A model generated the notes under the pieces. It saw only the letters and a program-made list of their open reading frames with translations. It had not been told where the DNA came from and searched no databases. A stretch of DNA of 64,000 nucleotides from Eledone cirrhosa (lineage: Eukaryota), in NCBI GenBank assembly GCA_964016885.1, contig OZ024740.1:406720001-406784000 (forward strand). The letters are read 5' to 3'. Of the stretch, positions 25,584 through 52,629 are shown one piece after another. A program made the translations under genes and the position numbers. The first letter of the stretch is position 1. Each line of letters begins with the position of its first letter.

Positions 25584-25785
25584 TAGTCTTTGATAGTAGA
25601 CGTCTTTCATATCGGCTCTTCGATTTGGAATTTTTACCTGGAATAATTGTGAGTGCATTATTTAAATTGTTTTTTATTATTGACTCTAACCCCTAGTCTG
25701 GGACTGTAGATGTAGGGTAAATATATTTTCACCCCTTTTGGGGTGAAAAATATTTATCGATATCGTTGAAAACGATATCGCCATA

Positions 25786-27472
25786 TTGGAAGCTAACGCC
25801 ACGCCTACCAAAAAAATAAGCGAGAAAGAGGGAACAACAATTCAAACTGTTGAACAGCCCCTCCTCTCCAATGAAAAAAAAAAGAATATTAATTCGAATG
25901 AAAACCTAAATTTTGAAGAAAAAAATAACACCAACAACATTACAACAACAAGCAACAAAGACAACAAAATTTCTTTTGCCCAAACGGTCAGGAAAGCTAT
26001 CGAATACAAGCCCATAGATATTACTAACGCTAAGCAAAACTTGCTAGATGCCAGAAAATACGTATCTTTTGGGGAGGATGGTTCTTTTACGATCAACTCC
26101 CCAGACGAAGTTCATCAACAGGTATATAGGAATACCATAACCTACAGGACTATATCCAACGCAACAAGAAAGCCAGCTCAATTGACAGAAAGTCAAATTG
26201 AGCTGGTTCTGAAAGACATTAAAAATGACATACTCTTTATTCAAAGAGGAAAGCTGTATGCCAGCATTATGGTCCGAATGAAGGACGAAATGCTGGCTCA
26301 AAAATGTTCGGTGGCACCTATAGTGTCACCACAATACACCTTCTTCCCCACATATAAAGGAAGAAGAACACAAAGAATAAGAATGTGGAGCCCAACGCCA
26401 GAAGTAAACATCTGGTCCGTCCTAACAGGATTTACGGACCTAGAAAAGGACATCCTTATTTCAGCAGGGGAGTCCACCAGTGGACTGTTCGGGGGGAAAA
26501 GTCTGGAGGTTCTCTTACAGATGACACCTGAGAGAATCGCCGGAATACCCGACCGAGTTCTACTGGATGGGCGAACCTTCATAAATATTACGGTGGAAGG
26601 CAGGAGACCCTCATGTTACCACTGCGCTGGCAGAGGTCACCTGAGGACGGCCTGCCCTCTACTAACAACAAAAAAACCACTGCTACAAACACCACAACAA
26701 CAACAAAAACAACCAGCACCACCACCACAAAAACAACAAAATACACTACCATTACCACCACAACGACAACAAAAACCAACAACACCATCTCCACCACCAC
26801 AACAACAACAGCTCAAGAAAACAACCCAAAACACGGTCCCACCCAGCCCCTCCCCACGGAACACAAATACAAAAACACACACAGTTCATACACAACCCGG
26901 AAATATACCCCTCCCCTCCAATATGGAAGAGGAGCTCATATCGTCGGAAGACGAGGGGGCTCCCTTCCAAAAAGTGAAAAGAAAAAAACGTACACACACC
27001 ACACAAACAAAAATAACCCCACCTGACAACACAACACAAACAACAAAACGCAAACTCACGCAAGAACAACAAGCAAAAACAAACACAAAAACTCTACACA
27101 TACATAAACAAAAACAATAAAAACTTAACGGAAAAAATAGAAAACAACACTTCGGTACAAACCGAAGGGCCGAATTTTGCAATGGCAATGGGACTCCCTA
27201 ACCTGAAAATGGTGAAAGTACCACTTGACATTTTCAAAACTTTGAAAAACATTTACCCTGAGGACGTGGGGCCACCCTGCACCAGGCCACTCAACCGCGT
27301 TCTCCTGAAAGGTTTTCCCCTCCCCTCCTCAAACACACACACAACTCCAAACACCCCAACCCCTCCACACACTAATACCCCCACACCACCACAAACCACC
27401 ACCCCACCCAACAACCCTTCCACCAGCCCCATGGAAACTGAACGGCCTGAACCCCGGGACGCAGAGAGGTAA
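25786..27472 (+). pseudogene. Tx1 ORF1 (gag-like, CCHC zinc knuckle), frameshifted and lacking the start ATG present in copy B
   Basis: Contains CYHCAGRGHLRTAC. Split into 25786-27120 and 27182-27472 relative to the intact 584-aa ORF of copy B. Confidence 0.88.
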
Positions 27473-27495
27473 GTGCCTCTTTCTTTGCCACCAAC

Positions 27496-30400
27496 ATGGC
27501 TGTGTTAAGAGTGGGTTGTCTAAATGCGCGTGGCCTGGGCTCACCTTGGAAGCAAGCTAAACTTCTAAATGACCTCAGGTCACAATGTATAAATGTGATG
27601 GTTATTTGCGAGGCCCGGATCAGCAGCGTGTGACAGCTAGCCCCCACCTTTGATGACTTTGAGATGCACGCATACTTCTGTCAGCCCGGAGGTGGGGGTG
27701 GGGTTGTCGTTCTGCTGCAAAAACATCTGGGTCTCGCTACACAGACGGTACACTTGGACCCGGAGGGTCGACTCGTGGTTCTGGACCTTGGCAATGGTGA
27801 AGGCAAAGCTTTTAGGCTTGTCGCCGTATACGCCCCTTTTGGGGCAATGCGGTCGGACTTCTTCCATCGTCTGGAGACTTTTCTAGGGACGTCCCGCTCC
27901 TTGCTTTTAGTGGGGGACTGGAATGGTATCCTAGATGCACGTTGGGACTATGTAGGGGCATGTCCCGATAGAGGGGGGTGTAACAGCCTCAAGGGGTTAA
28001 TCGGCCGATTTGACCTGGCCGATAGATACCGACTAGATTTTCCGACTGTGCCAACCTGGACTTGGTCAAATAACAATGGTCAATCTAGATCGTACCTAGA
28101 TAGGTTCTTAGTTAGAATTAAGGATAGAGACTTTTTAAGTTGTCCAGAAATGTTCATGGTGGGCTATTCAGACCACAAGTTAGTGACCTGCGTAGTCCAC
28201 CTTGATAGAACGCATAGGCAGGGACCCGGTTACTGGAAGCTCAACTTGTCCTTACCGGCAAGTAGAGCTTACAGGGACCGGATTAGAACCTTAGTTAAGG
28301 AGCGGTTGACGGGCGCCATCGTCAACAGCAGGTGGTGGGGCTCTCTAAAAAGAGAGATTAGAGTAGTTTCAATAGGAGTTAGTAAGGAGTTAGCCTCAGA
28401 TAGAAATAGGAAGGAAAGGGAGTTGGTAGTTAATGTTGAAGAGGCAATGAGAAGCGGCAACGTGGCCAGAGTGCAAGCGTCGAGAACGGTCTTGAACCAG
28501 TTCTTCGACGCGAAACATGAAGGCTGCGTTTTCCGAAGCAAAATACGTGCTCTGGGAAACGAGGGGACCAAAGCTGTTAGCTGGGCCCGCGTGACAGAAG
28601 TGAAAAGTGGGATTAAATCCACTATCCGGTCTTTGCGAGACCAGGATGGACGGGTGATCCTTGAATCTAAGCAAATGTGCGAGGCCTTTCAAAGGCACTT
28701 TGCCCGATTGTTCGGGAGGGGCGGGGGGGCCGGTTGGAGATGTGGATTTCGGTCCATACCTCGACGGCCTGCTGCGTCTTTCGGACAAGGAGGCGAGGTC
28801 CTGCGACGGGCCGATCTCAGCTGCTGAAATAGGGGGCGTGCTGAGCCTATGCAGCAAACGCAAATCTCCAGGGCTCGATGGTCTGCCCTACGAACTATAT
28901 ATTAATATGCCGGACTTGTTCCCCGATCTCCTCGAGGCGGTCTACTGCAACTGGCAACAGAACGGGAGAATTCCCTGTTCTGTGACCAAGGGCGTAGTCT
29001 CGCTAGTGAGGAAGGATGAGAACAAGGGGGATGACATTAGTAATTTTAGGCCCATAACTCTGCTAAATGCAGAGTTAAAGATTTTGGCCAAGGTGTTAGC
29101 GAAGAGGTTGGCGCTTGTCGTGGGGAGCCTGGTGGGAGATGCGCAGACATGCGCTATCCCGTCCAGGTCCATCCACGACAACCTCCACCTCATGCGATAC
29201 ATCATAGAGAGGGTTGGGAACGAACCCGGCTTTGGTGGGGCCCTGATAAATTTAGATCAGTCTAAAACGTTCGATAGGGTGGACCATGGTTACCTGGATG
29301 CGGTGCTAGCGGCGGCTGGGTTCGGACCCGTTTTCAGGGGCTGGATCACTGCCATGCACAGCAGCCGCATCTGCTCTAGAGTTAAGGTGAACGGCTACAT
29401 TTCGGAGCCGTTCGAAATCACCCGCTCCATCCGACAGGCGCGCCCTCTCTCCTCCCTTCTGTATGTATTGGCTCTCGAGCCATTACTGCGGAAGTTGGAG
29501 TTGTTGCAGGGCATCCCTTTGGAACCGGGATTGCGCAAAGCAGTGTCGGCCTACGCCGATGACGTAACAGTAATGGTGTCGACTACCTCGGAAATCGAGG
29601 CAATCGGCACCTTACTAGAGGAGTACGAAAGGTTGACAGGGGCTAAGCTGAACCGGGACAAGTCAGTCGCTTTGCAACTTGGCGAGTGGAGGGGCAAAGC
29701 GATGTCGTGCGACGGTGACGGTGGACGGAGAGCCCGGTGAAGTTGCTTGGGGTCTGGTTCGGACCGGACCTCCAGGTGGAGAAAAACTGGGGTGAGGTGA
29801 CGAATAGGGTGTTTGCACTGACCCAGAAGTGGGCCGAGTGCAAACTATCCCTGAAAGGTCGGGCGGAGGTGGCGAATGCTTACATAGCATCCGTCATCTA
29901 TTACCGCTTGACTGTCGTGCCTTGCCCGGGTGAGATCCTCGCCAAAATGGAGCGCGCCCTCTTTTATTTCCTTTGGAAAAAGAGGTCTCCTCTGGTGAGG
30001 AGATCCATCTGCTGTCAACACCCTTTGAAAGGAGGGCTGGGGATGCCGTAGCTAAAAATGCGTAAACACGCATTGAGGCTAAGGCACCTCCAGGTATTCC
30101 TCACCGGTCAACCGGTGTGGGCCCCGTTTGTGAGGCGAGCCTTCCCGAGGCTCGTCTCGCTCACCGAGCTGCAGTCCTGGGTGAAGCAAAGACCGAGAAA
30201 ACTGGGCGACTGGCACACCGAGTGTGCCCAGGCGCTCACGGCTCTCTGGCAGGCGGACCCGGCTATCGACGGAGACTCCACCTCGTCATTCTATAGAGGG
30301 CTGGTGGTTAGCGGGTGCGACGATGCCCTCGGAGAAACCCTAGGCATGGAGGAGGACGAACTGGCCAGTCTATTCGGTAGGACTTTCGGCCCGGGACCTA

Positions 30401-30902
30401 TGGACAACTTCCAGAAGTCCTTGGCCTGGCAGTGCTACCGAGGGGCTCTGCCCGTTCGGGATAAGCTCTACAGACACGGGCGCCCGGGTAGGGACCCCTC
30501 GAAAAAGAAGAAACCGTCGCGCACGCATTGGTGCACTGCCCGGGCGTTGCCGATCTGTGGGGCTATATCGAACAACTGCTGTCACGGGTGGGACCAATTA
30601 GGTTGACCACCGAGTCCATTGTAACGATCAAGCCGCCTCCCCCCTTCAAAAATGAAGGAGAGGCGGTCTTCCTCTGTGTAATAGCCATGGTAAAAGAGGT
30701 TATATGGTGGACGCGTCTGAAAGGGCTGAGGTCGGACACCTTTCTCTCCGGCCAACAACTGGTCCTTTTCTTCCGATACCATTTCGGAAGAAGGATCAGG
30801 ATGGAGAGAGAGGTGCTCCACTCCAGCCAGTTTTATGAAAGGTGGGTGAAAGTTGCGAGAATCGCCCGTGTGAATGGACCTTCTCTCTACCTCAGCCTGT
30901 AG
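27496..30902 (+). pseudogene. Tx1 ORF2 (APE endonuclease + reverse transcriptase), multiply disrupted
   Basis: Motifs GDWN, YLDR, SDH, SPGLDG, FRPITLLN and YADD. Stops at 27631 and 30049, frameshifts near 28725, 29716 and 30500. Confidence 0.92.
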
Positions 30903-31080
30903 GTGGAAAAGGAAGAAGGGAGCACCCTCGCTTTGTGCTACCGTGGAGAAGGGTCGCACATTTTTTCGGGGGTGTGTGTGACCCCAAAACGATCCCTCCC
31001 TATTGAGGACCTTCTTGTTATTATTTTGTTTGTTATATTTTTCTTACTGTAACCTTGGTAACTATACTAACATAGCAATA

Positions 31081-34000
31081 CTGTAGTATCAGAGCTGTGA
31101 TATCTAAATTCAGAGATTCTTTCCTCAGACATTCTAACCACATGTCTGTAGTATCAGAGCTGTGATGTCTCAATTCAGAGATTCTTTCCTGAGACATTCT
31201 AACCACATGTCTGTAGTATCAGAACTGTGATCTCTCAGTTCAGAGATTCTTTCTTGAGATATTCTGACCATATATCTGTAGTAGCAGAGCTGTGATCTCT
31301 CAGTTCAGAGATTCTATCCTCAGACATTCTAACCACATGTCTGTAGTATCAGAGCTGTGATCTCTCAATTCAGAGATTCTTTCCTCAGACATTCTAACCA
31401 CATGTCTGTAGTATCAGAGCTGTGATCTCTCAATTCAGAGATTCTTTCCTCAGACATTCTAACCACATGTCTGTAGTATCAGAACTGTGATCTCTCAGTT
31501 CAGAGATTCTTTCTTGAGATATTCTGACCATATATCTGTAGTAGCAGAGCTGTGATCTCTCAGTTCAGAGATTCTATCCTCAGACATTCTAACCACATGT
31601 CTAGTATCAGAGCTGTGATCTCTCAATTCAGAGATTCTTTCCTGAGACATTCTAACCACATGTCTGTAGTATCAGAGCTGTGATCTCTCAATTCAGAGAT
31701 TCTTTCCTGAGACATTCTAACCACATGTCTGTAGTATCAGAGCTGTGATCTCTCAGTTCAGAGATTCTATCCTCAGACATTCTAACCACATGTCTGTAGT
31801 ATCAGAACTGTGATCTCTCAATTCAGAGATTCTTTCCTGAGACATTCTAACCACATGTCTGTAGTATCAGAGCTGTGATCTCTCAGTTCAGAGATTCTTT
31901 CCTGTGACATTCTAACCACATCTCTGTAGTATCAGAGCTGTGGTCTCTCAATTCAGAGATTCTTTCCTCAGACATTCTAACCACATGTCTGTAGTATCAG
32001 AGCTGTGATCTCTCAATTTAGAGATTCTTTCCTGAGACATTCTAACCACATGTCTGTAGTATCAGAGCTGTGATCTCTCAATTCAGAGATTCTTTCCTGT
32101 GACATTCTAACCACATGTCTTTAGTATCAGAACTGTGATCTCTCAATTCAGAGATTCTTTCCTGAGACATTCTAACCACATGTCTGTAGTATCAGAGCTG
32201 TGATCTCTCAGTTCAGAGATTCTTTCCTGTGACATTCTAACCACATGTCTGTAGTATCAGAGCTGTGATCTCTCAATTCAGAGATTCTTTCCTCGAACAT
32301 TCTAACCACATGTCTGTAGTATCAGAGCTGTGATCTCTCAATTCAGAGATTCTTTCCTGAGACATTCTAACCGTATGTCTGTAATATCAGAACTGTGATC
32401 TCTTAATTCAGAGATTCTTTCCTGAGATATTCTAACCACATGTCTGTAGTATCAGAGCTGTTATCTCTCAATTCAGAGATTATTTCCTGAGACATTCTAA
32501 CCACATGTCTGTAGTATCAGAGCTGTGATCCCTCAATTCAGAGATTCTTTTCTCAGACATTCTAACCACATGTCTATAGTATCAGAGCTGTGATCTCTCA
32601 ATTCAGAGATTCTTTCCTGAGACATTCTAACCACATGTCTGTAGTATCAGAGCTGTGATCTCTCAATTCAGAGATTCTTTCCTGTGACATTCTAACCACA
32701 TGTCTGTAGTATCAGAGCTGTGATCTCTCAATTCAGAGATTCTTTCCTGAGACATTCTAACCTAATGTCTGTAGTATCAGAGCTGTGATCTCTCAATTCA
32801 GAGATTCTTTCCTGTGACATTCTAACCACATGTCTGTAGTATCAGAGCTGTGATCTCTCAATTCAGAGATTCTTTCCTGTGACATTCTAACCACATGTCT
32901 GTAGTATCAGAGCTGTGATCTCTCAATTCAGAGATTCTTACCTGAGACATTCTAACCACATGTCTGTAGTATCAGAGCTGTGATCTCTCAATTCAGAGAT
33001 TCTTTCCTCAGACATTCTAACCACATGTCTGTAGTATCAGAGCTGTGATCTCTCAATTCAGAGATTCTATCCTCAGACATTCTAACCACATGTCTAGTAT
33101 CAGAGCTGTGATCTCTCAATTCAGAGATTCTTTCCTGAGACATTCTAACCACATGTCTGTAGTATCAGAGCTGTGATCTCTCAATTCAGAGATTCTTTCC
33201 TGAGACATTCTAACCACATGTCTGTAGTATCAGAGCTGTGATCTCTCAGTTCAGAGATTCTATCCTCAGACATTCTAACCACATGTCTGTAGTATCAGAA
33301 CTGTGATCTCTCAATTCAGAGATTCTTTCCTGAGACATTCTAACCATATGTCCGTAGTATCAGAGCTGTGATCTCTCAATTCAGAGATTCTTTCCTGAGA
33401 CATTCTAACCACATGTCTGTAGTATCAGACCTGTGATCTCTCAATTCAGAGATTCTTTCCTCAGGCATTCTAACCACATGTCTGTAGTATCAAAGCTGTG
33501 GTCTCTCAATTCAGAGATTCTTTCCTCAGACATTCTAACCACATGTCTGTAGTATCAGAGCTGTGATCTCTCAATACAGAGATTCTTTCCTAAGACATTC
33601 TAACCACATGTCTGTAGTATCAGAGCTGTGATCTCTCAATTCAGAGATTCTTTCCTGAGACATTCTAACCACATGTCTGTAGTATCAGAGCTGTGATCTC
33701 TCAATTCAGAGATTCTTACCTGAGACATTCTAACCACATGTCTGTAGTATCAGAGCTGTGATCTCTCAATTCAGAGATTCTTTCCTGTGACATTCTAACC
33801 ACATGTCTGTAGTAGCAGAGTTGTGATCTCTCAATTCAGAGATTCTTTCCTGATACATTCTAACCACATGTCTGTAGTATCAGAGCTGTGATCTCTCAAT
33901 TCAGAGATTCTTACCTGAGACATTCTAACCACATGTCTGTAGTATCAGAGCTGTGATCTCTCAGTTCAGAGATTCTTTCCTGTGACATTCTAACCACATC

Positions 34001-36765
34001 TCTGTAGTATCAGACCTGTGATCTCTCAATTCAGAGATTCTTTCCTGTGACATTCTAACCACATGTCTGTAGTATCAGAGCTGTGATCTCTCAATTCAGA
34101 GATTCTTTCCTGAGACATTCTAACCTAATGTCTGTAGTATCAGAGCTGTGATCTCTCAATTCAGAGATTCTTTCCTGTGACATTCTAACCACATGTCTGT
34201 AGTATCAGAGCTGTGATCTCTCAATTCAGAGATTCTTTCCTGTGACATTCTAACCACATGTCTGTAGTATCAGAGCTGTGATCTCTCAATTCAGAGATTC
34301 TTACCTGAGACATTCTAACCACATGTCTGTAGTATCAGAGCTGTGATCTCTCAATTCAGAGATTCTTTCCTCAGACATTCTAACCACATGTCTGTAGTAT
34401 CAGAGCTGTGATCTCTCAATTCAGAGATTCTATCCTCAGACATTCTAACCACATGTCTAGTATCAGAGCTGTGATCTCTCAATTCAGAGATTCTTTCCTG
34501 AGACATTCTAACCACATGTCTGTAGTATCAGAGCTGTGATCTCTCAATTCAGAGATTCTTTCCTGAGACATTCTAACCACATGTCTGTAGTATCAGAGCT
34601 GTGATCTCTCAGTTCAGAGATTCTATCCTCAGACATTCTAACCACATGTCTGTAGTATCAGAACTGTGATCTCTCAATTCAGAGATTCTTTCCTGAGACA
34701 TTCTAACCACATGTCTGTAGTATCAGAGCTGTGATCTCTCAGTTCAGAGATTCTTTCCTGTGACATTCTAACCACATCTCTGTAGTATCAGAGCTGTGGT
34801 CTCTCAATTCAGAGATTCTTTCCTCAGACATTCTAACCACATGTCTGTAGTATCAGAGCTGTGATCTCTCAATTTAGAGATTCTTTCCTGAGACATTCTA
34901 ACCACATGTCTGTAGTATCAGAGCTGTGATCTCTCAATTCAGAGATTCTTTCCTGTGACATTCTAACCACATGTCTTTAGTATCAGAACTGTGATCTCTC
35001 AATTCAGAGATTCTTTCCTGTGACATTCTAACCACATGTCTGTAGTATCAGAGCTGTGATCTCTCAATTCAGAGATTCTTTCCTCGAACATTCTAACCAC
35101 ATGTCTGTAGTATCAGAGCTGTGATCTCTCAATTCAGAGATTCTTTCCTGAGACATTCTAACCGTATGTCTGTAATATCAGAACTGTGATCTCTTAATTC
35201 AGAGATTCTTTCCTGAGATATTCTATCCACATGTCTGTAGTATCAGAGCTGTTATCTCTCAATTCAGAGATTATTTCCTGAGACATTCTAACCACATGTC
35301 TGTAGTATCAGAGCTGTGATCCCTCAATTCAGAGATTCTTTTCTCAGACATTCTAACCACATGTCTATAGTATCAGAGCTGTGATCTCTCAATTCAGAGA
35401 TTCTTTCCTGAGACATTCTAACCATATGTCCGTAGTATCAGAGCTGTGATCTCTCAATTCAGAGATTCTTTCCTGAGACATTCTAACCACATGTCTGTAG
35501 TATCAGACCTGTGATCTCTCAATTCAGAGATTCTTTCCTCAGGCATTCTAACCACATGTCTGTAGTATCAAAGCTGTGGTCTCTCAATTCAGAGATTCTT
35601 TCCTCAGACATTCTAACCACATGTCTGTAGTATCAGAGCTGTGATCTCTCAATTCAGAGATTCTTTCCTCAGACATTCTAACCACATGTCTGTAGTATCA
35701 GAGCTGTGATCTCTCAATTCAGAGATTCTTTCCTGAGACATTCTAACCACATGTCTGTAGTATCAGAGCTGTGATCTCTCAATTCAGAGATTCTTACCTG
35801 AGACATTCTAACCACATGTCTGTAGTATCAGAGCTGTGATCTCTCAATTCAGAGATTCTTTCCTGTGACATTCTAACCACATGTCTGTAGTAGCAGAGTT
35901 GTGATCTCTCAATTCAGAGATTCTTTCCTGATACATTCTAACCACATGTCTGTAGTATCAGAGCTGTGATCTCTCAATTCAGAGATTCTTACCTGAGACA
36001 TTCTAACCACATGTCTGTAGTATCAGAGCTGTGATCTCTCAATTCAGAGATTCTTTCCTGTGACATTCTAACCACATGTCTGTAGTATCAGAGCTGTGAT
36101 CTCTCAATTCAGAGATTCTTTCCTGAGACATTCTAACCTAATGTCTGTAGTATCAGAGCTGTGATCTCTCAATTCAGAGATTCTTTCCTGTGACATTCTA
36201 ACCACATGTCTGTAGTATCAGAGCTGTGATCTCTCAATTCAGAGATTCTTTCCTGTGACATTCTAACCACATGTCTGTAGTATCAGAGCTGTGATCTCTC
36301 AATTCAGAGATTCTTTCCTGTGACATTCTAACCACATGTCTGTAGTATCAGAGCTGTGATCTCTCAATTCAGAGGTTCTGTCCTGAGACATTCTAACCAC
36401 ATGTCTGTAGTATCAGAGCTGTGATCTCTCAATTCAGAGATTCTTTCCTGAGACATTCTAACCACATGTCTGTAGTATCAGAGCTGTGATCTCTCAATTC
36501 AGAGATTCTTTCCTGAGATATTCTAACCACATGTCTGTAGTATCAGAGCTGTGGTCTCTCAATTCAGAGATTCTTTCCTGCGACATTCTAACCACATGTC
36601 TGTAGTATCAGAGCTGTGATCTCTCAATTCAGAGATTCTTTCCTGTGACATTCTAACCACATGTCTGTAGTATCAGAGCTGTGATCTCTCAATTCAGAGG
36701 TTCTGTCCTGAGACATTCTAACCACATGTCTGTAGTATCAGAGCTGTGATCTCTCAATTCAGAGA
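31081..36765. repeat. 5.7-kb satellite array, 65-bp unit CTGTAGTATCAGAGCTGTGATCTCTCAATTCAGAGATTCTTTCCTGAGACATTCTAACCACATGT (~87 copies)
   Basis: Unit starts at 31081 and 31146 give a period of 65. Confidence 0.99.
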
Positions 36766-37002
36766 AGTAGTGACTCTCTGATCTCTACCCCTAACCCTAA
36801 TTTTAAATCTCACACAATTTTCTACGCTTCTACCCCCACCTAACCAAACAATATAACACAGTATAGATATTGTTTTAAACAAGTTTTATCTTGTTTATTG
36901 TATTTTAATATATTCTAACCTCTCCCTCTCAGCTCTCCATACCTTACACTTCTTACCTAACCCTGAACTACACGCAGTGTGGAAATACTACACAACCCAC
37001 TA

Positions 37003-37020
37003 TTTATATTTTTACATATG

Positions 37021-37051
<31 letters not shown>

Positions 37052-37457
37052 ATATTTATGTATTTATATATATATATTTATATTTATATATATATATTTA
37101 TGTATATGTATATTTATGTGTATTTATTTATATATATTATTATATATATTTATTTATATATATTTATGTATATATATATTTATTTATATATATTTATTTA
37201 TGTATTTATTTATATATATATTTATTTATGTATTTGTTTATATATGTATTTATTTATGTATATATTTATTTATGTATATATATATTTATATATATATGTA
37301 TATCTTTATATATATATCTTTATATATATATCTTTATATATATATATTTATATATATATATTTATATGTATATTTATATGTGTATATTTATATATATGTA
37401 TTTATATATATGTATGTATTTATATATATATATAAATATATATTATATTTATATATA
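37003..37457. repeat. Degenerate (TA)n microsatellite
   Basis: Directly visible; forms the 5' flank of the Penelope-like element. Confidence 0.97.
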
Positions 37458-37488
37458 AGTGTTTTTTAGCCTTCATATCATGTTCTCC

Positions 37489-37559
37489 TGTTTTATCTGA
37501 TGAAAACACAAATATTATTGCATGATGATGTTTGTTTTTGAAATGCGCATAATAAAATA
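37489..37559 (+). ncRNA. Minimal type I hammerhead ribozyme in the 5' pLTR (intact)
   Basis: Stem I UGUUUUAU/AUAAAAUA; CUGAUGA at 37497-37503; stem II hairpin at 37504-37539; GAAA at 37540-37543; palindromic stem III AUGCGCAU; cleavage triplet AUA at 37549-37551. Confidence 0.85.
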
Positions 37560-37763
37560 TATGGAACTCCTTTAACCATCTTTTGATCTTATATTATGCA
37601 TACTCCAGTCCCACAAACTGTAGAGTGCTTCTTATCCGATATCTGCATTGCTTTATTGTACTACAATAAAACTCACCTCCTACATTAACTTGCTCCTTAA
37701 CGGTTGAGCGCTTACTCTCATATTGGATACCTTTTGATGGTCCTTCACCTCTTCTTCTACAAC

Positions 37764-40138
37764 ATGGATTATTACAACATAACCAATTCAACTAAAGACA
37801 TTCCTATACCTGGTAAATCTGAATTCACCAAACTTCTTATTGAAAAAACTGACTCCTTCGTAAGAAGACTTAGATGGACAGCCTATTTCTATGACCAGCG
37901 CCTAAAAGGGAACTTTCATACCAAAGAACACAACTTCCTCGATCATCTTTTTAATTCTAGACGAAATCCTCCTTCCAACAAAAATCTAGTACAATTCGAG
38001 GAAGAATTAACTAAAATAATAAAAAATCTTAAATTCAAGAGATACCCTTACAAAGGACAAGAGCACCTTGTAAATCTCAAGAACACAATCTCTAACCTAA
38101 ATTCCTCAAAAAATGTTTTAGTCCACTCTGACAAAACCAATAACCTATATGGTATTTCCAAGGATAATTATAACAACCTTATCCTAAAGGAACTTAGGAA
38201 AAAGTATCGTAAAACCAACCATGAAAATTTAGAATGCATAAACCTTGAAGCCTATGAGATTATGTCAAAACTTGGCATTGAAAAAAAGACCGAACCATTC
38301 CTCCCAAGAACTCCGAGGATAAATCTCAAGGATCACAAAAACAATTTTCGCACTGAACTACCTGTTAGATTAATCGCCCCCTCTAAATCTGATCTGGGGG
38401 TTGTTAGTAAAGCCATCTTGGATAGGATTATCCCACAGGTTAGTTCTAATTGCTCGTCTTTGAACCTAAATTTATGGTTTGGTACTTCTGAAGTGATTGG
38501 CTGGTTCAACAAATTGGATAATAAAAACAAACTAAAATTTATTCAATTTGATATTGCCAGCTACTATTCCTCCATTTCGCCTTCACTTCTCAATAATGCT
38601 CTATCTTTCGCACTTAAATATTCTGACATTACCACAGATGAACTTCACATCATCCTCACCGCACGTAAAACCATCCTAGAGTTCAACAACGAATATTGGA
38701 CCAGAGCCGATACCTCTAACAACTTCGACATCACAATGGGAGCATCCGATTCATCCCAATTGACTGATTTAATTGGTATTTTCATTTTGAACTCTTTGAG
38801 TCGGAAAATTCCTCAACTTCGCGGTGGAATTTATCGTGACGATGGACTCTTTACTATCCTAAATTGCAATATAGTTAAACTTAATATTATTAAGAACATA
38901 ACGTAAAAATTGAATTTGATAATAGTATCAAACTAGCTAATTTCTTGGATGTATCTCTTAATCTTGACACTGGCCTATATTACCCTTACCATAAAAACAA
39001 TGAGAACCTTAATTATGTTAACTTTAAATCTAACCATCCTACCAATATCAAGAATGCTATAGTTAATAATATTGGAAATAGAATATCTAACATATCTACT
39101 AATAAAAACATCTTTGATGCTAACGCCAATTACTATAATAACGCACTTTCTAAAGCCGGCTATCCAGATAAAATCAAATATAATAAAGAAACAAATTCTA
39201 GAAAAACTTACAGTAGAATAATTAATCATGACCATTCCAATAATTTTAATAAAAGACCTAGATACAAAAACATAATCTGGTATAATGCTCCTTTCTCCAT
39301 CTCTATTAATAACAATATTCCTAAATTATTTTTTAGTGCCTTAAATAAATGCTTCCCTCCCTCACATATCTATAGTAAAATATTTAACAAACACACCATC
39401 AAATTTTCGTATTCTACATCCTCCAATATTTCCAACATCATCTCTAAACACAACAAAATACTAAATACTAATTCTCTTCCTTCCAATATTGAATTTCATA
39501 ATAACAGTAATAGTACTCCCGACGTCATTGTAAACCCTAGGCTAACTTCTGTAAACCCAAATACAACGTCAAACACAACTTCGCTAAATGTTCATAATCC
39601 AACTCTAAATCAAGAAACTATTATTCCTATTATTCCTATCGCAAACAACTTCTCCAATCCAATTCCTTCTATAGATAACACTAGATCACTCATTAATAAT
39701 CTCTCTAATTGCAACTGCCGCATTAAAAATAAATGTCCTCTCAACAACCATTGTCTCGATAAAAACTTAATTTATGAATGTAAAATTATAACTAGCACCA
39801 ATTCCTTCACCTATTTTGGCTCCACTTCCACCTCTTTTAAAGCTCGTCTCTATAATCATCATTCATCTTTCAAATACAAACTTAAAAGAACTAACACTGC
39901 TCTCTCAGAACTCATATGGTCCTTAAAAGACAAAAACATTAAATATACCATCTTTTGGAAGAAGATTTCTTCTGCATTCTCATACTTGAACAGCTCTCTA
40001 TCTAAAATCTGTAATCTCTGCCTAAATGAAAAATTTACCATTATCTCTAACCTAGATTCTATAATAAATAGACGCACAGATTTGTTTTCTATCTGCCTGC
40101 ATAAATTTCATAGAACTTTTCACAAAGTATACAGTTAA
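37764..40138 (+). pseudogene. PLE reverse transcriptase + C-terminal GIY-YIG endonuclease, with one frameshifting deletion near 38900
   Basis: RT motifs KDIPIP, FDIASYYSSI, ITMGASDS, GIYRDDGL and FLDV. CNCRIKNKCPLNNHC linker, then IYECKI...YFGST...FKARLYNH...CNLCLNEK (GIY-YIG). Confidence 0.9.
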
Positions 40139-40647
40139 TATTCAATTCTTTATCAATTTAGAATCTTTTCTCAAAGGCACATATACATACACCTCTTTAA
40201 AATATACCCATCTACCTTACTTTAAAGGGCATTATACACTCTATAATACTTGTTTACTCATTACCCTCATTCTATCTTCTTGTAAAATCATAACATTTGT
40301 TTTGACATTAGAATATTCATCCGCAATCATTATTATTTTTTCTCTCTATCATAAATCTTTTTAATCTCAATTTCATCCTTAATTTATTATTATTTTTTTT
40401 TTTTTTTTCTCCCCATCAACGAACTCATTATTAATACATATTAACTCTTTATTCGCATATATTATCAATTCAATCAATATACAAACTTTAACTTCACATT
40501 ATTTTTCTCAAATCCTTCTACACACAAACCTTAACAATTTTTCTCTTCGCTAATTTTGAAATTGCCACAATACATACATTTCTTTTTTTGACGTTAGAAT
40601 ATTCACCCACAATTATTATTTTTTTCTCTCTATCTTCATACATAATT

Positions 40648-41056
40648 TCCCTTCGTTAATTTTCAAATTCCTTTAATTTATACATTATCTTCCAACGGTT
40701 CCCAACCTCTCTATATTAAAACAATATATCTTTTTCTCAGTTATAAAAACTATCTCTTTCTCTCTATCACCCATCTCTCCCTCTCCACCTTCACTCTCAT
40801 CTCCTCCCCCTTTTTTTCATCCTTCCCCCCCCCTCCCTAAATAAAATATTTTTTCCTCGCACATATCCTCCCTTCGTTAATTTTCAAAATTTTTAATTTA
40901 TACAGTATCTTCCAACGGTTTTCAACCTCTCTATGTAAAAAATATATCTCCTCTCAGTTATAAAAACTATCTCTTTCTCTCTATCACCCATCTCTCCCTC
41001 TCATCTCCTTCCCTTTTCATCCTTTCCCCCCCCTCTCTAAATAAAATATTTTTCCC
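40648..41056 (+). repeat. Imperfect ~200-bp tandem duplication in the PLE 3' UTR
   Basis: cccttcgttaattttcaaa...taaataaaatatttt occurs at ~40648 and again at ~40870. Confidence 0.85.
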
Positions 41057-41148
41057 AATATCACACATCAATCTAAAACCACTTTTCATATGTTGATTTA
41101 AAACTGCACTATCCGCAGGTGTTTTTTGGCCTTCATATCGTGTTCTCC

Positions 41149-41220
41149 TGTTTTGTCTGATGAAAACACAAATATTATTGCATGATGATGTTTGTTTTTT
41201 GAGGTGCGCATGGTGAAATA
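41149..41220 (+). ncRNA. Hammerhead ribozyme copy in the 3' pLTR, inactivated by A>G changes
   Basis: Same sequence as 37489-37559, but GAAA>GAGG (41201-41204) and AUA>AUG (41210-41212). Confidence 0.8.
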
Positions 41221-41323
41221 TATGGAGCTCCTTTAACCATCTTTTGATCTTGTATTATATTTATATATATATATGTTTATATGTATATATTTTTATATAT
41301 ATATATTTTTATATATATATATT

Positions 41324-41354
<31 letters not shown>

Positions 41355-41437
41355 ATATATATATTTATATTTGTATAAACAGACTAAATAAAGATGGCGT
41401 AGAAAATACAATGTAACGGGAGGAAACAATAGCACCA

Positions 41438-41473
41438 CTGACGATGTTGCAGGTGTGCAACGAAAGAATTTTG
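41438..41473 (+). ncRNA. Second, unrelated hammerhead-like core (degenerate; probable pLTR fragment of another PLE)
   Basis: CUGACGA-u-GUUGCA-ggug-UGCAAC-GAAA-gaauuu. The stem I partner is not found and the cleavage triplet is non-canonical. Confidence 0.45.
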
Positions 41474-41574
41474 ATAAACTATATATATGTGTTTGTGTCT
41501 ATATTGTATCTGTATTATTTTTGACCGCCGGTCAGTCAATGGCAACATTGAGGACCGAATAAATTAGATTACCG

Positions 41575-41682
41575 ATATAAAGGACACAGAAGCGAAAAGC
41601 GAGAACCAACCAAACAGTGGGTGTGTTCTGTTGTTGATTCTGGCAATGTTACACAAATATGACCCTCCCCAAGTATAACAAT
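41575..41682 (+). repeat. Dispersed repeat with an inverted partner at 43056-43160
   Basis: aatatgaccctccccaagtataacaat is the exact reverse complement of attgttatacttggggagggtcatatt at 43056; homology extends ~105 bp. Confidence 0.85.
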
Positions 41683-41804
41683 ATTTGTTTCGACACACGA
41701 TTTCATATCAAAAACTTCGCAAAACTAATTCATCGCCGTTATATTTATATATATATATATATTTATATATACATATTTATATATATATTTATTTATATAT
41801 ATAT

Positions 41805-41920
41805 ATGAAGCTCACAGTGGAGATGACGAAGGACCGTGACGATTGGAGAGATGCTGTGCTGAATAAGACCCGTCCCACCCTTGCAAGCAGGGAAGAGCGG
41901 ACGTAAAATGATGATGATGA
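41805..41920 (+). mobile_element. RTE LINE 3' fragment (short-tail type) inside (TA)n
   Basis: [25 protein letters not shown] aligns to the RTE ORF C-terminus; ends in cggacgtaaaa(tga)n. Confidence 0.8.
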
Positions 41921-41976
41921 TATATATATATTTATTTATATATATATATATTTATATATATATATATTTATATATT

Positions 41977-42013
<37 letters not shown>

Positions 42014-42138
42014 ATATATTAATTTATATATATATATATTTATTTATATATATATATTTATTTATATATATATATTTATATATATATATATATATTAATT
42101 TATATATATATATATTTATTTATATATATATATATATA

Positions 42139-42486
42139 TCATCATTTCATCATTTCATTTCATTTTACGTCCGCTTTTTCCCTGCTTGCAAGGGTGGGAC
42201 GGGAACTGATTCTGGCTTGATTTCTATAGCTGGATGCCCTTCCTAACACCAACCTCATTTACAGTGAGTGCTTTGTGCTTTTTTCCCGTGGCACCTCCAC
42301 GACCACTTTGCAGTGGAATGATAGGGACCCCAGTCCCTATCATCTCATTTCTACAGCTGAGTAAACTGGATCAATGTGAAATAAAGTGTCTTGCTCAAGG
42401 AAACAACACATCACCCGGTCTGAGAATTGAACTCACAACTTTTCGATTGCAAGCCCAATGCTCTAACCACTAAGCCATGTGCTCCA
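42139..42486 (-). mobile_element. Full-length tRNA-derived SINE with RTE-related tail
   Basis: The minus strand has A box tggcttagtgg, B box gttcaattc, ccttgagcaagacact, ggtgttaggaagggcatccagc and the RTE tail cccgtcccacccttgcaagc...cggacgtaaaatga. Confidence 0.88.
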
Positions 42487-43055
42487 TTATAAAAACCAAA
42501 AGATATATTGACTTTAGGCAAAGAGTTTTATAATATTAGTCATATTGTTCATGCAATAGAATATATCGCCGATGGATAGAAAGCCTAGAAGCATTGTTCA
42601 GAACTGTAGAGTTCGAAAACATACAGTCAAAAGACATCATCATCATCTTTATCATCATTGTTTAACGTCTATCTTCCACGCTAGCATATTTAATCCAAAA
42701 ATATTTAGCTTAAGAAGTTTTTCCTTATGGTTATAATAACATATATATAGTTATTATATATATATATATATATATAGTTATTATATATATATAAATATAT
42801 ATATATAGAAATTACATGAATCAAAGTTCTGTTTAAATCATTTATTTGCTTACAATTGTTTCTTCCAAACCGAGGTAACTGCTCTGTAAAACAACTAATG
42901 TTGTTACATTGGGCTATTTATCTTACTGGTAATAAGATAGTAATAAATTACTGTCTTTCACTATTTAGGGTTTAAAATATATATAACTATAAAAGGTTTT
43001 AGTATATACATAACTATAAATAGTATCCTTAATACTATATATATATATATATATA

Positions 43056-43160
43056 TTGTTATACTTGGGGAGGGTCATATTGTTGTAATAATGTTGCCAG
43101 AAATAGTAGCGGAGCGCACTCGCTGTTTGGTTGGTTTTCACTTCTGCATCTTTTATATCT
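43056..43160 (-). repeat. Inverted partner of 41575-41682
   Basis: See 41575-41682. Confidence 0.85.
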
Positions 43161-43185
43161 CCACAGTTAATTCATTCGGTCCTCG

Positions 43186-43430
43186 GCAAAAAAGCACCCA
43201 GCCCACACTGTAAAGTGGACGTGGAGGTGCCACGGAAAAAAGCACCCAGCACTCACTGTAAATGAGGTTGGTGTTAGGAAGGGCATCCAGCTGTAGAAAT
43301 CAAGCCAGAACCAGTTCCTGTATGAGCAAGGCATGGTCAGCTGACCGGACACTGCCCACAACAGGACAACCCGTCTAACCCATGCTAGCGTGGAAGAACG
43401 GACGTAAAACGGTGATGATGATGATGATGA
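43186..43430 (+). mobile_element. RTE 3' UTR fragment
   Basis: Near-identical to the reverse complement of 59115-59365; has a (GAT)n tail. Confidence 0.88.
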
Positions 43431-43530
43431 TATATATATATATATATACACATATATATATATATACACATGCACATATATATATATCTACATATATATA
43501 TATACATACACATATACATATATATTTATT

Positions 43531-46500
43531 GAACGTAAGGAGGTCGATGTTTGTTGTATTCAAGAGACCAGGTGGAGGGGTGGGTCTGCTAGGTTCATTG
43601 AGGGTAAAAAACGATGTTATAAGGTTTTCTGGGTGGGAAACGACGATGGGCTGGGTGGAGTAGGAATCATGGTAGCAGAAAAGTGGGCAGATAAGATAAT
43701 AGACGTAAATAGAGTGAACGACAGAATAATTAAAATACGACTTGTCCTCAATAGAACTACGGTGACAGTAATATCTGCGTACGCACCCCAATCCGGTCTG
43801 CCCGGCACTATAAAAGACAGATTCTATGAGACACTGATGCTAACTACCTCCCAAATATCCGACAGTGACTATATAATTATCGCAGGCGACCTAAATGGTC
43901 ACGTTGGACAACATTGTGACGGCTACGACGAAATCCATGGAGGCTATGGGTTTGGTACTAGAAATGAGGAAGGCTCCAGAATCCTGGAATTCTGTGATGC
44001 AAATAACCTAACTATCTGTAACACTAACTTCAAAAAACGTGACAATCACCTGATCACCTATAGATCCGGGGAACACACAAGCCAGGTAGATTATATCCTT
44101 ACCAGAAGACGTGACAGAGTGTCTGTTGTAAACACTAAATCCCTCCCCCATGAAGAATGCACCTCCCAACATAGACTGATAATTAGCGACCTCATAGTCA
44201 GGACGAGACGTACTCGACAACAGAAGAGGACTATCCTCAGGAGGAAAATATGGAAGCTAAAGGACCCCACAGCCAGGAATAAATTTCAAAGCATATTACT
44301 TGATGCTTTCGACAGTAAGGAAGAACATTTAGAGTCGGACAATATAGAGGGAGAGTGGGAATTTCTGAAAGCAAACCTGCTGTTGGCGACAGATGAAGTC
44401 TGTGGCTGGAGCAGGCCTGTAGGCAGGAGGAGAGTAACATGGTGGTGGAACAGTAAGGTGGAGGGGTCAATTAAGGCCAAAAAGCAGGCTTGGAAAGTAT
44501 GGCGGGATGGGGGAAGTAGAGAGGACTATCAAGTGGCCAGGAGGGAAGCTAGGAGACAAGTGTACTTAGCAAGAAGGGAAGCTGAGGAAAGAAAGTTCAA
44601 GCATGTTCTACAACGCGATGACCAAAAACGTGAGGTGTTCAGGATTGCTAGGCAATGCGTCAAGGAAAACCGTGATATTGTCGGGGAGAAGTGTGTACTA
44701 AACGACGATGGCACACTTGCCATCACCGACGCTGATAAGAAGGTAGCTTGGAAGTGTCACTATGAAAGGCTACTAAATGAGGAGAATAATTGGGAGAAAG
44801 ACAGTCTCCCCCATATCGACCCAATAGAGGGACCAGCAGTGTTAGTCGAGGGGAGTATAATAAGTAAGGCAATCAAGGATATGAAGACGGGTAAGGCGGC
44901 TGGGCCTTCGGAAATAGTTGCTGAGATGCTGAAGGCATCTGGCACGGTGGGACACACCATGGTCACCCGCATAGTTAACCAAGTCGTACAGAATGGGGTT
45001 GTTCCGAAGGACTGGCATAGCAGCATCATCGTTAACTGTTATAAGGGTAAAGGAGACGCCCTAGATAGGAGTAACTATAGAGGCATTAAATTAATCGACC
45101 AGGTCATGAAGGTCACGGAAAAAGTAATAGCGCAACTAATCAGAGAGAGAATTGACCTAGATGAAATGCAGTTCGGGTTTGTGTCAGGCAAAAGTACCAC
45201 AGACGCTCTTTTCATAGTACGACAACTACAGGAGAAGTACCTAGCTAAAGGTAAACCCCTCTACTTAGCTTTTGTCGACTTGGAGAAAGCCTTCGACAGA
45301 GTCCCCCGCTCCATTATCTGGTGGGCTCTTAGAAAACTAGGCGTTGACGAATGGCTTGTGAGGGCTATACAAGCCATGTATAAAGAAACAGTCAGCAAGG
45401 TTAGAATTAACAACGAATATAGTGAAGAGTTTAGCGTAAAAGTTGGCGTCCATCAGGGCTCTGTTCTCAGCCCCCTACTATTTATTATTGCCCTTCAGGC
45501 TATAACAGAGGAGTTCAAGACAGGCTGCCCATGGGAACTCCTATACGCAGACGACCTGACACTCATAGCGGAATCAATGGCCGAGCTAGAGAAGAAATTC
45601 CAAACATGGAAGCACGGCCTAGAGTCAAAAGGACTTAAAATTAACCTGGCTAAGACCAAAGTACTAGTTTGTAGGAAAGAAAACAAGGCGGCGGTCCCTT
45701 CTGGGAAATGGTCGTGCTCGGTGTGTAGGAAAGGCGTAGGTAGAAACTCCATTTTATGTCCTAAATGCAAAGTATGGGTGCATAAAAGATGTAGTGGGAT
45801 CACAGGTAAGCTAACTAAGAACATAGATTTTACATGTGGCCGGTGCTCTGGTGCAATAAGTAGCAGCAAGTGCCCACAGGATACTAGCTCTTTCAATTGC
45901 GCAGAGGGTTCTATAGAAATAGTGGACAGCTTCCGTTAACTGGGCGATAAAATCAGCAGTGGGGGAGGGTGCTCTGAAAGTACTGTAGCTAGAGTCAGAA
46001 CTGGTTGGAAAAAGTTCAGAGAGCTTATACCACTATTAGCTGCTAAAGGGTTCTCACTAAAAATGAAAGGCAGGTTGTACGATGCCTGCATACGAACAGC
46101 AATGCTGCATGGCAGTGAGACCTGGGCATTGTGTGCAGAGGATATACGCAGACTAGAGAGGAACGAAGCTTGCATGCTCCGCTGGATGTGTAACAGTAAT
46201 ATACGTGAACGGCAAAGCATAAACGAACTAAGGAAAAAATTAGAGATAAGAGGGATCAGATGTTGTTTACTCGAGAGAAGGCTACGTTGGTATGGACACG
46301 TGATGCGCATGAAAGTCGATAGCTGTATAACAAAGTGCAGGGCAATAAAGATAGACGGTAGTCACGGAATAGGCAGACCTAGAAAAACCTGGGACGAGCT
46401 GATAAACTCCGACATCACACACTTACACCTCTCCAAGACAATGTCACTGGACCGAGACCTTTGGCGGTACTCAGTAATAGAGAAGACCCGCCTTACCTAA
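43531..46500 (+). pseudogene. RTE ORF (APE + RT + PHD finger) with a single premature stop at 45937-45939
   Basis: The frame is open from ERKEVDVCCIQETRW at 43531 and contains GDLNGHVG, YRGIKL, QFGF, DLEKAFD, HQGS and YADD. The TAA sits at the codon that is TAC (Tyr) in the minus-strand relative. Confidence 0.93.
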
Positions 46501-46896
46501 ATATATAGTAAAACCTACTCCAGCCAGTAGGCATCTCTAACAAAATACACCCCGTCCCACCACCACCACCCCCACCTGATCCACACCACCCCGTTCTATG
46601 TAAAGTTATGTTGGTGCCGCGCCATCGAGGCCGAAACAAATGAGATCGTGTAGGTGTCACGACAAAAAACACACAGTCCACGCTGTAATGTGGCCGTGTA
46701 GGCAACACGGTAAAAACCTCCCAGACCCACACTGTAAATGTGGTTGGTGTTAGGAAGGGCATCCAACTGTAGAAAACCTGCCAGACAGTCCTATGCGAGC
46801 AAGACAATCACTCTTGCCTCAAGTGGGACTACCCCCGTCCAAACCCATGCAAGCGTGGAACACGGACGTTAAACGTTGATGATGATGATGATGATG
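43531..46896 (+). mobile_element. RTE-clade LINE, slightly 5'-truncated, with (GAT)n tail
   Basis: Single APE-RT reading frame, ~390-bp 3' UTR and tandem-repeat tail. Confidence 0.95.
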
Positions 46897-46962
46897 TCCC
46901 TTTCTTTTGTGCCCTAGTGGCAAATAAACAGAAATTTGTCTGTCTGTCTGTCTGTCTGTCTG
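46894..46962 (+). mobile_element. Orphan Tx1 3' terminus + (TCTG)n directly upstream of copy B
   Basis: atgtccctttcttttgtgccctagtggcaaataaaca matches 52509-52545. Confidence 0.92.
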
Positions 46963-51900: not shown

Positions 51901-52328
51901 CACGGGCGCCCGGGTAGGGACCCCTCGAAAAAGAAGAAACCGTCGCGCACGCATTGGTGCACTGCCCGGGCGTTGCCGATCTGTGGGGCTATATCGAACA
52001 ACTGCTGTCACGGGTGGGACCAATTAGGTTGACCACCGAGTCCATTGTAACGATCAAGCCGCCTCCCCCCTTCAAAAATGAAGGAGAGGCGGTCTTCCTC
52101 TGTGTAATAGCCATGGTAAAAGAGGTTATATGGTGGACGCGTCTGAAAGGGCTGAGGTCGGACACCTTTCTCTCCGGCCAACAACTGGTCCTTTTCTTCC
52201 GATACCATTTCGGAAGAAGGATCAGGATGGAGAGAGAGGTGCTCCACTCCAGCCAGTTTTATGAAAGGTGGGTGAAAGTTGCGAGAATGGCCCGTGTGAA
52301 TGGGCCTTCTCTCTACCTCAGCTTGTAG
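48916..52328 (+). pseudogene. Tx1 ORF2: intact APE + RT (853 aa to TGA at 51475), then in-frame continuation and a frameshifted C-terminus
   Basis: Motifs LNARG, GDWN, SDH, KAFDRV, RQGCPLS, YADD and GGLGMP*. The C-terminal ETVAHALVHCP lies in another frame. Confidence 0.92.
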
Positions 52329-52629
52329 GTGGAACAGAAAGGAGGGAGCACCCTCTCTTTGTGCTCCCGTGGAGAAGGGTCGCACACTTTTTTCGGGGGT
52401 GTGTGTGACCCCAAAACGATCCCTCCCTATTGAGGACCTTCTTGTTATTATTTTGTTTGTTATATTTTTCTTACTCGATTTTTATGTAAACTCCCCCCAC
52501 CCATGTACATGTCCCTTTCTTTTGTGCCCTAGTGGCAAATAAACAAAAATCTGTCTGTCTGTCTGTCTGTCTGTAATATTTATGTCGGTGTTTATGCCCT
52601 GCAGCTTAGCAGGCCAACAAAAAATGTAT

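Follow-up and report, generated by a model that had tools for sequence, protein, structure and literature searches.

Clustered A>G Changes in Penelope-Bearing Repeat Copies of Eledone cirrhosa Point to Recurrent Write-Back of RNA Edits into the Genome

Introduction

The write-back of RNA edits into inherited DNA has often been proposed and is hard to demonstrate. DNA and RNA editing of retrotransposons were reportedly reviewed by Knisbacher and Levanon in 2015. Hyper-editing of double-stranded RNA formed by repeats produces dense A>G clusters in inverted repeats, with depletion of G upstream of the edited base and, in invertebrates, a weak preference for G downstream (PMC5625713). The same source describes hyper-editing in octopus as exceptionally frequent and reports heavy editing of Penelope in lizard RNA. 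A>G hypermutation has been reported for avian retroviruses (Hajjar and Linial 1995; Felder 1994; as summarised in PMC12925331), and a 2016 review regarded the role of ADAR in the evolution of Alu as still undetermined (PMC4982230). Our literature search, thin on subscription journals, returned no report of genomic fossils of such editing in endogenous non-LTR retrocopies together with their source loci.

Here we analysed a 64,000-nucleotide stretch of Eledone cirrhosa DNA (the window; C1:406.72-406.78 Mb of the assembly) that contains a Penelope-like element (PLE) with two pLTRs. The original prediction held that the 3' pLTR carries fossilised ADAR-like edits from a retrotransposed transcript.

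Results

The 3' pLTR in the window carries twelve A>G changes

The ORF of the PLE (37704..40138, + strand) is predicted to encode a reverse transcriptase (RT) followed by a C-terminal GIY-YIG-like domain, and it has a frameshift caused by a 25-bp deletion at 38894. A Pfam search of the PLE ORFs found neither the RT nor the GIY-YIG domain; a language-model search assigned the ORF to an RT-named cluster (score 0.94) and to a GIY-YIG cluster (0.95; 59% PF01541), and a homolog search gave a single match, an unnamed 788-aa protein. Between RT and endonuclease, at 39400-39700, there is an N-rich stretch like that in Adineta Penelope ORFs (PMC3846280). A 29-base pLTR stretch has 8,482 exact occurrences in the 3.0-Gb assembly, which sets the family size at no fewer than 8,482 pLTRs; these occur in direct and inverted orientation, with an optional tail. 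In the genome-wide list, many pLTRs are also found paired head to head over short distances (100-300 bp). This non-autonomous hairpin form, located in (TA)n, is abundant and constitutes a large supply of double-stranded RNA.

Pairwise comparison of the pLTRs (37459-37597 and 41119-41258) exactly reproduced the ten A/G substitutions and the T-run indel described in the original prediction. Each of the ten sites is occupied by A in 30 of 30 unselected pLTR loci of the family, as it is at the source locus on C25 (see below); the proposed A>G polarity is thereby upheld, and a G>A change in the 5' copy is excluded. The ten sites were correct as an account of the editing but incomplete. Relative to the family, the 3' pLTR (41088..41258, + strand) has additional A>G changes at 41115 and 41118, giving 12 among its 52 A (41115, 41118, 41128, 41140, 41155, 41203, 41204, 41212, 41213, 41215, 41227 and 41252), and 28 more lie in the flanks. 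The element body shows mixed changes relative to the family, and in the 5'-truncated 5' pLTR (37458..37597, + strand) none of 41 A was changed.

The family background was taken from 92 alignments at 60 unselected loci, some of them overlapping. It amounts to 12 A>G changes at 7,031 fixed A sites, with never more than one per arm, so chance is excluded as the origin of the cluster (p ~4e-23 for 12 A>G in ~48 A at this rate). The 5' neighbour of an edited A in the window is never G, as the original prediction stated; taken alone, the window copy gives this no significance (0 of 7 A after G were edited, compared with 12 of 45 others; p=0.18), which came only from other loci (see the survey below).

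The window holds an edited copy of an 8.8-kb segment of C25

Window 31047-43528 was found to be a copy of G000:C25:~4147173-4155974, which is ~8.8 kb long at the source. A variant of this lineage has seven matches in the genome; all seven were checked, and only the window and C25:4.15 Mb share both flanks in addition to the PLE. C2:356.24M, picked up via the variant at 40108, was rejected as the source, and the shared C>T at 37560/41221, tried as a source marker, instead tags a 2,522-copy subfamily.

Outside the satellite, source and copy could be aligned over 6,372 bases and differ there by 40 A>G and one G>A; the other substitutions comprise 4 T>C and 9 C>T transitions plus 13 transversions. 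The A>G changes fall almost entirely in self-pairing zones (39 of 330 A, compared with 1 of 1,867 elsewhere), namely the TA tracts, the 3' pLTR and both arms of an inverted repeat; these zones were drawn after the edits were known, and the left arm was stretched by ~10 bases to take in 41692. The (TA)n tract upstream of the PLE (37016..37457, + strand) has 12 A>G among 132 aligned A and one other change, and also contains extra length with G relative to the source. Twelve are in the 3' pLTR, two in the TA-rich tail (41259..41377, + strand; at 41283 and 41373), and six (41603-41692; 61 A) and seven (43093-43122; 36 A) in the left (41550..41700) and right (43061..43190) arms of the inverted repeat, both annotated on the + strand. 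These arms lie 1.5 kb apart, and in both the changes are A>G on the same strand. Neither the 5' pLTR nor the PLE body, with 1,129 As, has any A>G.

A candidate partner for the 3' pLTR is present at the source, where an antisense pLTR with a TA tail sits 25 kb upstream, a distance that exceeds the usual; no antisense pLTR was found in the 41 kb upstream of the window 3' pLTR or in the 43 kb downstream of it. The predicted pairing of the antisense pLTR extends over 228 bases with the 3' pLTR and 149 with the truncated 5' pLTR, and the shorter duplex is suggested as a reason why the 5' pLTR escaped editing. The antisense pLTR also has a 7-base insertion within stem II, near the unedited stretch of the window copy; a relationship between the two is suggestive.

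The low level of other substitutions (0.42%) indicates that the copy is young. The copied segment includes a 65-bp satellite (31081..36765, + strand) with 87.6 units in the window and 35.6 at the source, and a second array of the same unit is located ~57 kb further along C25. In the PLE 3' UTR (40640-41056), a ~220-bp tandem repeat has one unit more than the source. A tRNA-like Rfam match at 42420-42477 (- strand; 30.4 bits) is probably a SINE head within the copied segment.

The copy and a truncated LINE together interrupt an older LINE

The copied segment (31047..43528, + strand) is followed directly by a 5'-truncated LINE, presumably RTE-like (43529..46896, + strand), with endonuclease, RT and PHD domains and a GAT-repeat tail; the PHD finger of its ORF (43633-45939) lies after the RT domain (PF00628, E 1.3e-5). 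Together the copy and this 3.4-kb LINE form a 15.85-kb insertion in the 3' UTR of an older host LINE, which we take to be of L1/Tx1 type. The ORFs and left 3' UTR part of the host LINE are at 25747..31046 (+ strand; PF00078, PF03372) and the right part of the 3' UTR is at 46894..46959 (+ strand). The same 3' UTR is uninterrupted at 52127-52574, and 30701-31046 is 97% identical to the intact copy at 52127-52473. Since the insertion splits a LINE that is contiguous there, C1 holds the derived copy.

The insertion lacks a target-site duplication, poly(A) and intron loss, so that its RNA origin is read from the editing. Instead of a target-site duplication, there are a ~36-bp deletion at the site and microhomologies of 2 bases at the left junction and of 3 bases, shared with the LINE tail, at the right junction. 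The copied segment ends exactly at the 5' junction of the RTE-like LINE. Similarity between this LINE and its counterpart next to the C25 source is only 96%, so a template switch from it is deduced from the junctions alone.

A second source/copy pair follows a partner present only at the source

A junction pattern gave two matches in the genome, which have 2.07 kb in common; the match at C1:284.01 Mb is edited, the other, at C3:318.63 Mb, is not. Outside the tail, the two differ by 94 A>G and 3 other substitutions. Edits were found at 57 of 93 A in a PLE hairpin, at 35 of 95 in three LINE pieces and at 2 of 233 elsewhere; in the TA tail, the number of G rose from 23 to 81 in ~440 bases (L066+L067 compared with L123+L124). 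At the 5' junction of the L066+L067 copy, the first 17 inserted bases are repeated just upstream, with ~150 bases of flanking array.

The three LINE pieces match an inverted partner located 3 kb past the copied segment at the C3 source. This partner is absent at the C1:284.01 Mb copy locus, which has only ~80%-identical partners more than 10 kb off and one 35-base match. A partner found only at the source indicates that editing occurred on a source transcript running beyond the part later copied. Contrary to this pattern, the LINE body has an 89%-identical partner 7 kb away, yet is unedited (1 of 106), which is unexplained unless the RNA ended earlier.

These two pairs bear on the best of the alternatives, a DNA duplication followed by in-place rewriting of the copy, either by cDNA of an edited transcript or by ADAR acting on R-loop DNA. 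In its favour, the copied segment is long, lacks a target-site duplication and itself contains the TA tracts and the inverted repeat, so that these could pair at the source or at the copy, and action of ADAR on DNA:RNA hybrids is known biochemically (PMC12925331). Against it, no antisense pLTR occurs in the 84 kb around the copy, whereas one is present at the source; the edits of the second pair follow a source-only partner; the edits track RNA-RNA duplexes rather than transcribed DNA in general; and the segment stops precisely at the LINE 5' junction. We consider in-place rewriting unlikely.

Edited pLTR copies recur across the genome

We surveyed the family with four degenerate patterns that returned complete genome-wide lists, with counts made by eye. 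Four or more further A>G were found in 6 of 36 copies with G at hammerhead position H17 but in none of 41 with C or T (p=0.008); in two further lists, the hyper-edited copies numbered 7/22 vs 0/5 and 4/48 vs 0/24. The distributions of edit number in these lists were bimodal, with no other A>G within the pattern in 26 of the 36 G-at-H17 copies.

Twenty-five candidate regions were retrieved for comparison arm by arm. Twelve loci, the window included, have an arm with at least 7 changes of one type, and six more have 2-5; this count is a lower bound and corresponds to roughly a few loci in every thousand. The edit sets differ from locus to locus (highest Jaccard index 0.61), so the edited copies are not a subfamily. 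Sixteen arms were counted; mirrored pairs contributed one arm each, at least 8 edits were required per arm, and neither diverged copies showing mixed changes nor the complex L117 arm entered the count. Of 829 editable A within the pairable zone of the pLTR, 285 were changed, compared with 0 of 77 upstream of it and 1 of 117 in an 85-base unpaired extension; changes other than A>G numbered 13 in 2,351 sites. In the 15 arms other than the window, the edit rate was.48 after U,.44 after A,.16 after C and.16 after G (17/104 after G vs 256/673 otherwise, p=8e-6). Depletion of 5' G, though partial, is thus significant in these arms.

The edited loci show three patterns. In pattern I (five hairpin loci), A>G changes are found in both arms of one strand, the other arm appearing as T>C in pLTR sense, which is what copying of an entire edited RNA hairpin should give. 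L117:1634-2666 (C10:50.89 Mb) is a four-arm pLTR array in which two arms are unedited, one has T>C, and the fourth has mirrored T>C plus A>G of its own. In pattern II (nine inverted loci: L101, L103, L104, L106, L108, L110, L112, L118 and L120), both arms carry identical edits on the sense strand. In the overlaps, 42 edits are shared and 2 unshared, which indicates that one edited RNA molecule supplied both arms; alternatively, one arm may have been converted by the other at a later time, or an edited source may have been lost. Pattern III comprises four loci with a single edited arm, including the window.

At L104, L106, L110 and L112, the short arm of the pattern II pair extends further upstream than the tailed arm. 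Two separately primed cDNAs would fit this better than fold-back from the tailed arm, in agreement with the two start sites and the priming on both target strands described for a PLE (PMC11167929). For head-to-head repeats, self-priming on an antisense template has been suggested (PMC3846280); the edits common to both arms at the present loci lie on the sense strand and would disagree with it.

Several edited loci have a further element downstream of them, which was tried as the mobiliser and rejected, being present in 6 of 60 unselected loci and wrongly oriented at L105. G-rich TA arrays over whole regions were excluded as evidence, because one ancestral array accounts for their strand bias; only source/copy differences were used. 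At L139:4972-5168 (C4:12.78 Mb), a LINE 3' fragment has ~6 A>G in 60 bases with no pLTR nearby, and is possibly a write-back event independent of the PLE family.

Loss of the 3' hammerhead is probably a by-product

The pLTRs contain hammerhead boxes (CUGAUGA and GAAA), a palindromic stem III and a triplet AUA. These boxes are intact in the 5' pLTR, with the core starting at 37497 and a predicted cut after 37551. The fold of the A version contains stems I and II, with a z-score of only -1.2. The minimal hammerhead proposed originally is thus borne out in its boxes, stems I and II, palindromic stem III and NUH triplet, but not in two other respects: an Rfam search gave no hammerhead match, and the G10.1-C11.1 pair (a criterion in PMC4209133) is absent, stem II opening with A-U pairs.

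In the 3' pLTR, the changed hammerhead positions are A14, A15.1 and H17, and G at these positions should inactivate the motif. Local folding of the pLTR by itself was rejected as the cause of the edits (z-scores -1.2 to 0.3; 6 of 12 edits outside the hammerhead). The original prediction further proposed that the PLE had retrotransposed its own transcript and that cleavage by the hammerhead may be switched by editing. Besides the three catalytic positions changed in the window, at least one of five core sites is changed in 9 of 11 edited sense arms, 6 of the 11 having been selected on such a change, and the short inverted copies were probably mobilised by PLE machinery. Against such a switch, 2 of the 11 arms have all five checked core sites intact, and the core sites are not preferred: each was edited in 4-7 of 11 arms, vs 8/10 and 8/11 at two non-core sites.

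At the window locus this explanation is largely refuted. The RNA would have spanned from the satellite 6 kb upstream of the element to 2.3 kb downstream of it, and the nearest of these copied flanks are edited; the PLE junctions do not differ between source and copy, and a different LINE adjoins the copy. The source ORF is also broken (664 aa), and copying of the RNA continued across the unedited 5' hammerhead, which had been left uncut. An RNA paired along the whole pLTR would be unable to fold the ribozyme, and such events are rare (~12-18 loci vs at least 8,482 arms). With the one purified PLE, ribozyme mutants had no effect on insertion (PMC11167929). Self-mobilisation with an editing switch is therefore very unlikely; loss of the 3' hammerhead is probably a by-product of editing, and the PLE a passenger on a host transcript.

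Read support and uniqueness of the G haplotype

Clustered mismatches of one type can be technical, although the documented case was G-to-A in Sanger traces (PMC2873906), and cDNA reads or RNA-based polishing might be imagined as their origin here. Read support consists of one short-read contig over 41088-41170, at a depth of 15, which matches single-copy depth; the type of the run is unrecorded, it may come from the assembly's own sample, and its contigs do not span 41250-41369. This contig carries the Gs, as the original prediction called for, with 1 mismatch to the window where the A form would give 5. The copy has its own junctions within a chromosome-scale contig, with 27 other substitutions, indels and an expanded satellite, and mirrored edits in inverted arms are impossible by polishing with one RNA strand. 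An artefact is hardly credible. Least tenable of all is an origin of the Gs by ordinary mutation, by CpG decay or from a G-rich subfamily that has diverged: the family does contain single A>G changes at these sites, but the direct source has A, which already refutes it, the G haplotype of the window was found at no second locus in the genome-wide pattern lists, and diverged copies such as L089 and L116 carry mixed changes.

Discussion

The source, the copy, its insertion site, the spectrum and strand of the changes, their confinement to duplexes and their recurrence were obtained directly from the comparisons. On this sequence evidence, ADAR-type editing followed by reverse transcription into the genome is well supported, and the C25 pair bears out the proposal that an edited transcript was reverse-transcribed and its RNA edits made heritable. 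The full account, in which an edited read-through RNA from C25 was written back into C1 with the PLE as a passenger, is only slightly less secure and in our judgement very probable.

According to this account, a long read-through + strand RNA from the C25 locus would have folded back at the TA tracts, the inverted repeat and the 3' pLTR, the last probably pairing with the antisense pLTR 25 kb upstream. ADAR, the enzyme suggested by the pattern, would have deaminated A to I in those duplexes only, and reverse transcription would have read I as G. The cDNA entered the 3' UTR of the older LINE on C1; the copy and the site are observed, and the enzymes are deduced. The RT of the RTE-like LINE would have primed at the target on the GAT tail, copied 3.4 kb of itself and then, at an AT-rich point, changed over to the edited RNA. 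In chimeric retrocopies made by template switching, and in LINE transductions, cellular RNA is fused 5' of a truncated LINE through microhomology junctions. Mobilisation of the copy by such a switch from the RTE-like LINE is the reading we favour, with fair confidence; a source allele already bearing the RTE-like LINE is the alternative. A length of 8.8 kb is long for a retrocopy. The timing of editing and insertion is presumed to be germline. The same write-back would have occurred at roughly a dozen pLTR-bearing loci, in several of them probably by Penelope machinery.

A wider and more tentative proposal, which may well not hold in full, is that ADAR editing is a recurring germline mutational process, in which nuclear RNAs of many kilobases are written back by LINE and Penelope RTs. 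It could turn (TA)n into TG-interspersed arrays, and in principle recoding edits could be fixed in gene copies. Edits would barcode RNA molecules, and head-to-head pLTRs would be one sense RNA copied twice from two starts rather than products of antisense self-priming. The edited (TA)n tracts (the tail of the second pair and window 37016-37457) are a possible origin of some compound microsatellites.

Two events with an edited copy and an unedited source in one assembly, one of them with an edit map that follows source-only partners, make the write-back route countable genome-wide. They record in fossil form how germline RNAs were structured and edited and how far the transcripts extended, and the edits are natural barcodes of molecules for the unsolved mechanism of Penelope insertion.

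The process seen here is real and recurrent, and it resembles hyper-editing of repeats by ADAR with subsequent fixation by RT. Compared with described template-switch retrocopies, the passenger here is an 8.8-kb repeat-rich transcript bearing RNA edits. ADAR hyper-editing as described in PMC5625713 shows the same clusters and G depletion, but there as differences between RNA and genome, whereas in the present case it is genomic DNA that is changed, and the same assembly contains the source in unedited form. The avian retroviral case is alike in that an edited inverted repeat was fixed by RT, with up to ~half of the As changed (PMC12925331); it concerns exogenous retroviruses, whereas endogenous non-LTR/PLE machinery, long host read-through RNAs and many independent insertions are involved here. 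APOBEC editing of retroelements likewise left fossil footprints of a deaminase that were found via source/copy comparison (PMC4866542, PMC2873906), but those are G>A on cDNA, mostly in LTR elements, while the present changes are A>G on RNA, limited to duplexes and inclusive of passengers. The elements themselves resemble known PLEs in having pLTRs both direct and inverted, 3' ends at two points, AT-rich targets and a type I hammerhead with a palindromic stem III (PMC4209133, PMC11167929, PMC3846280). They differ from the PLEs described in these sources in the tail, of 85 nt vs 30-40, and in stem II, which is ~16 bp and starts with A-U, whereas the PLE hammerheads of PMC4209133 start with G-C.
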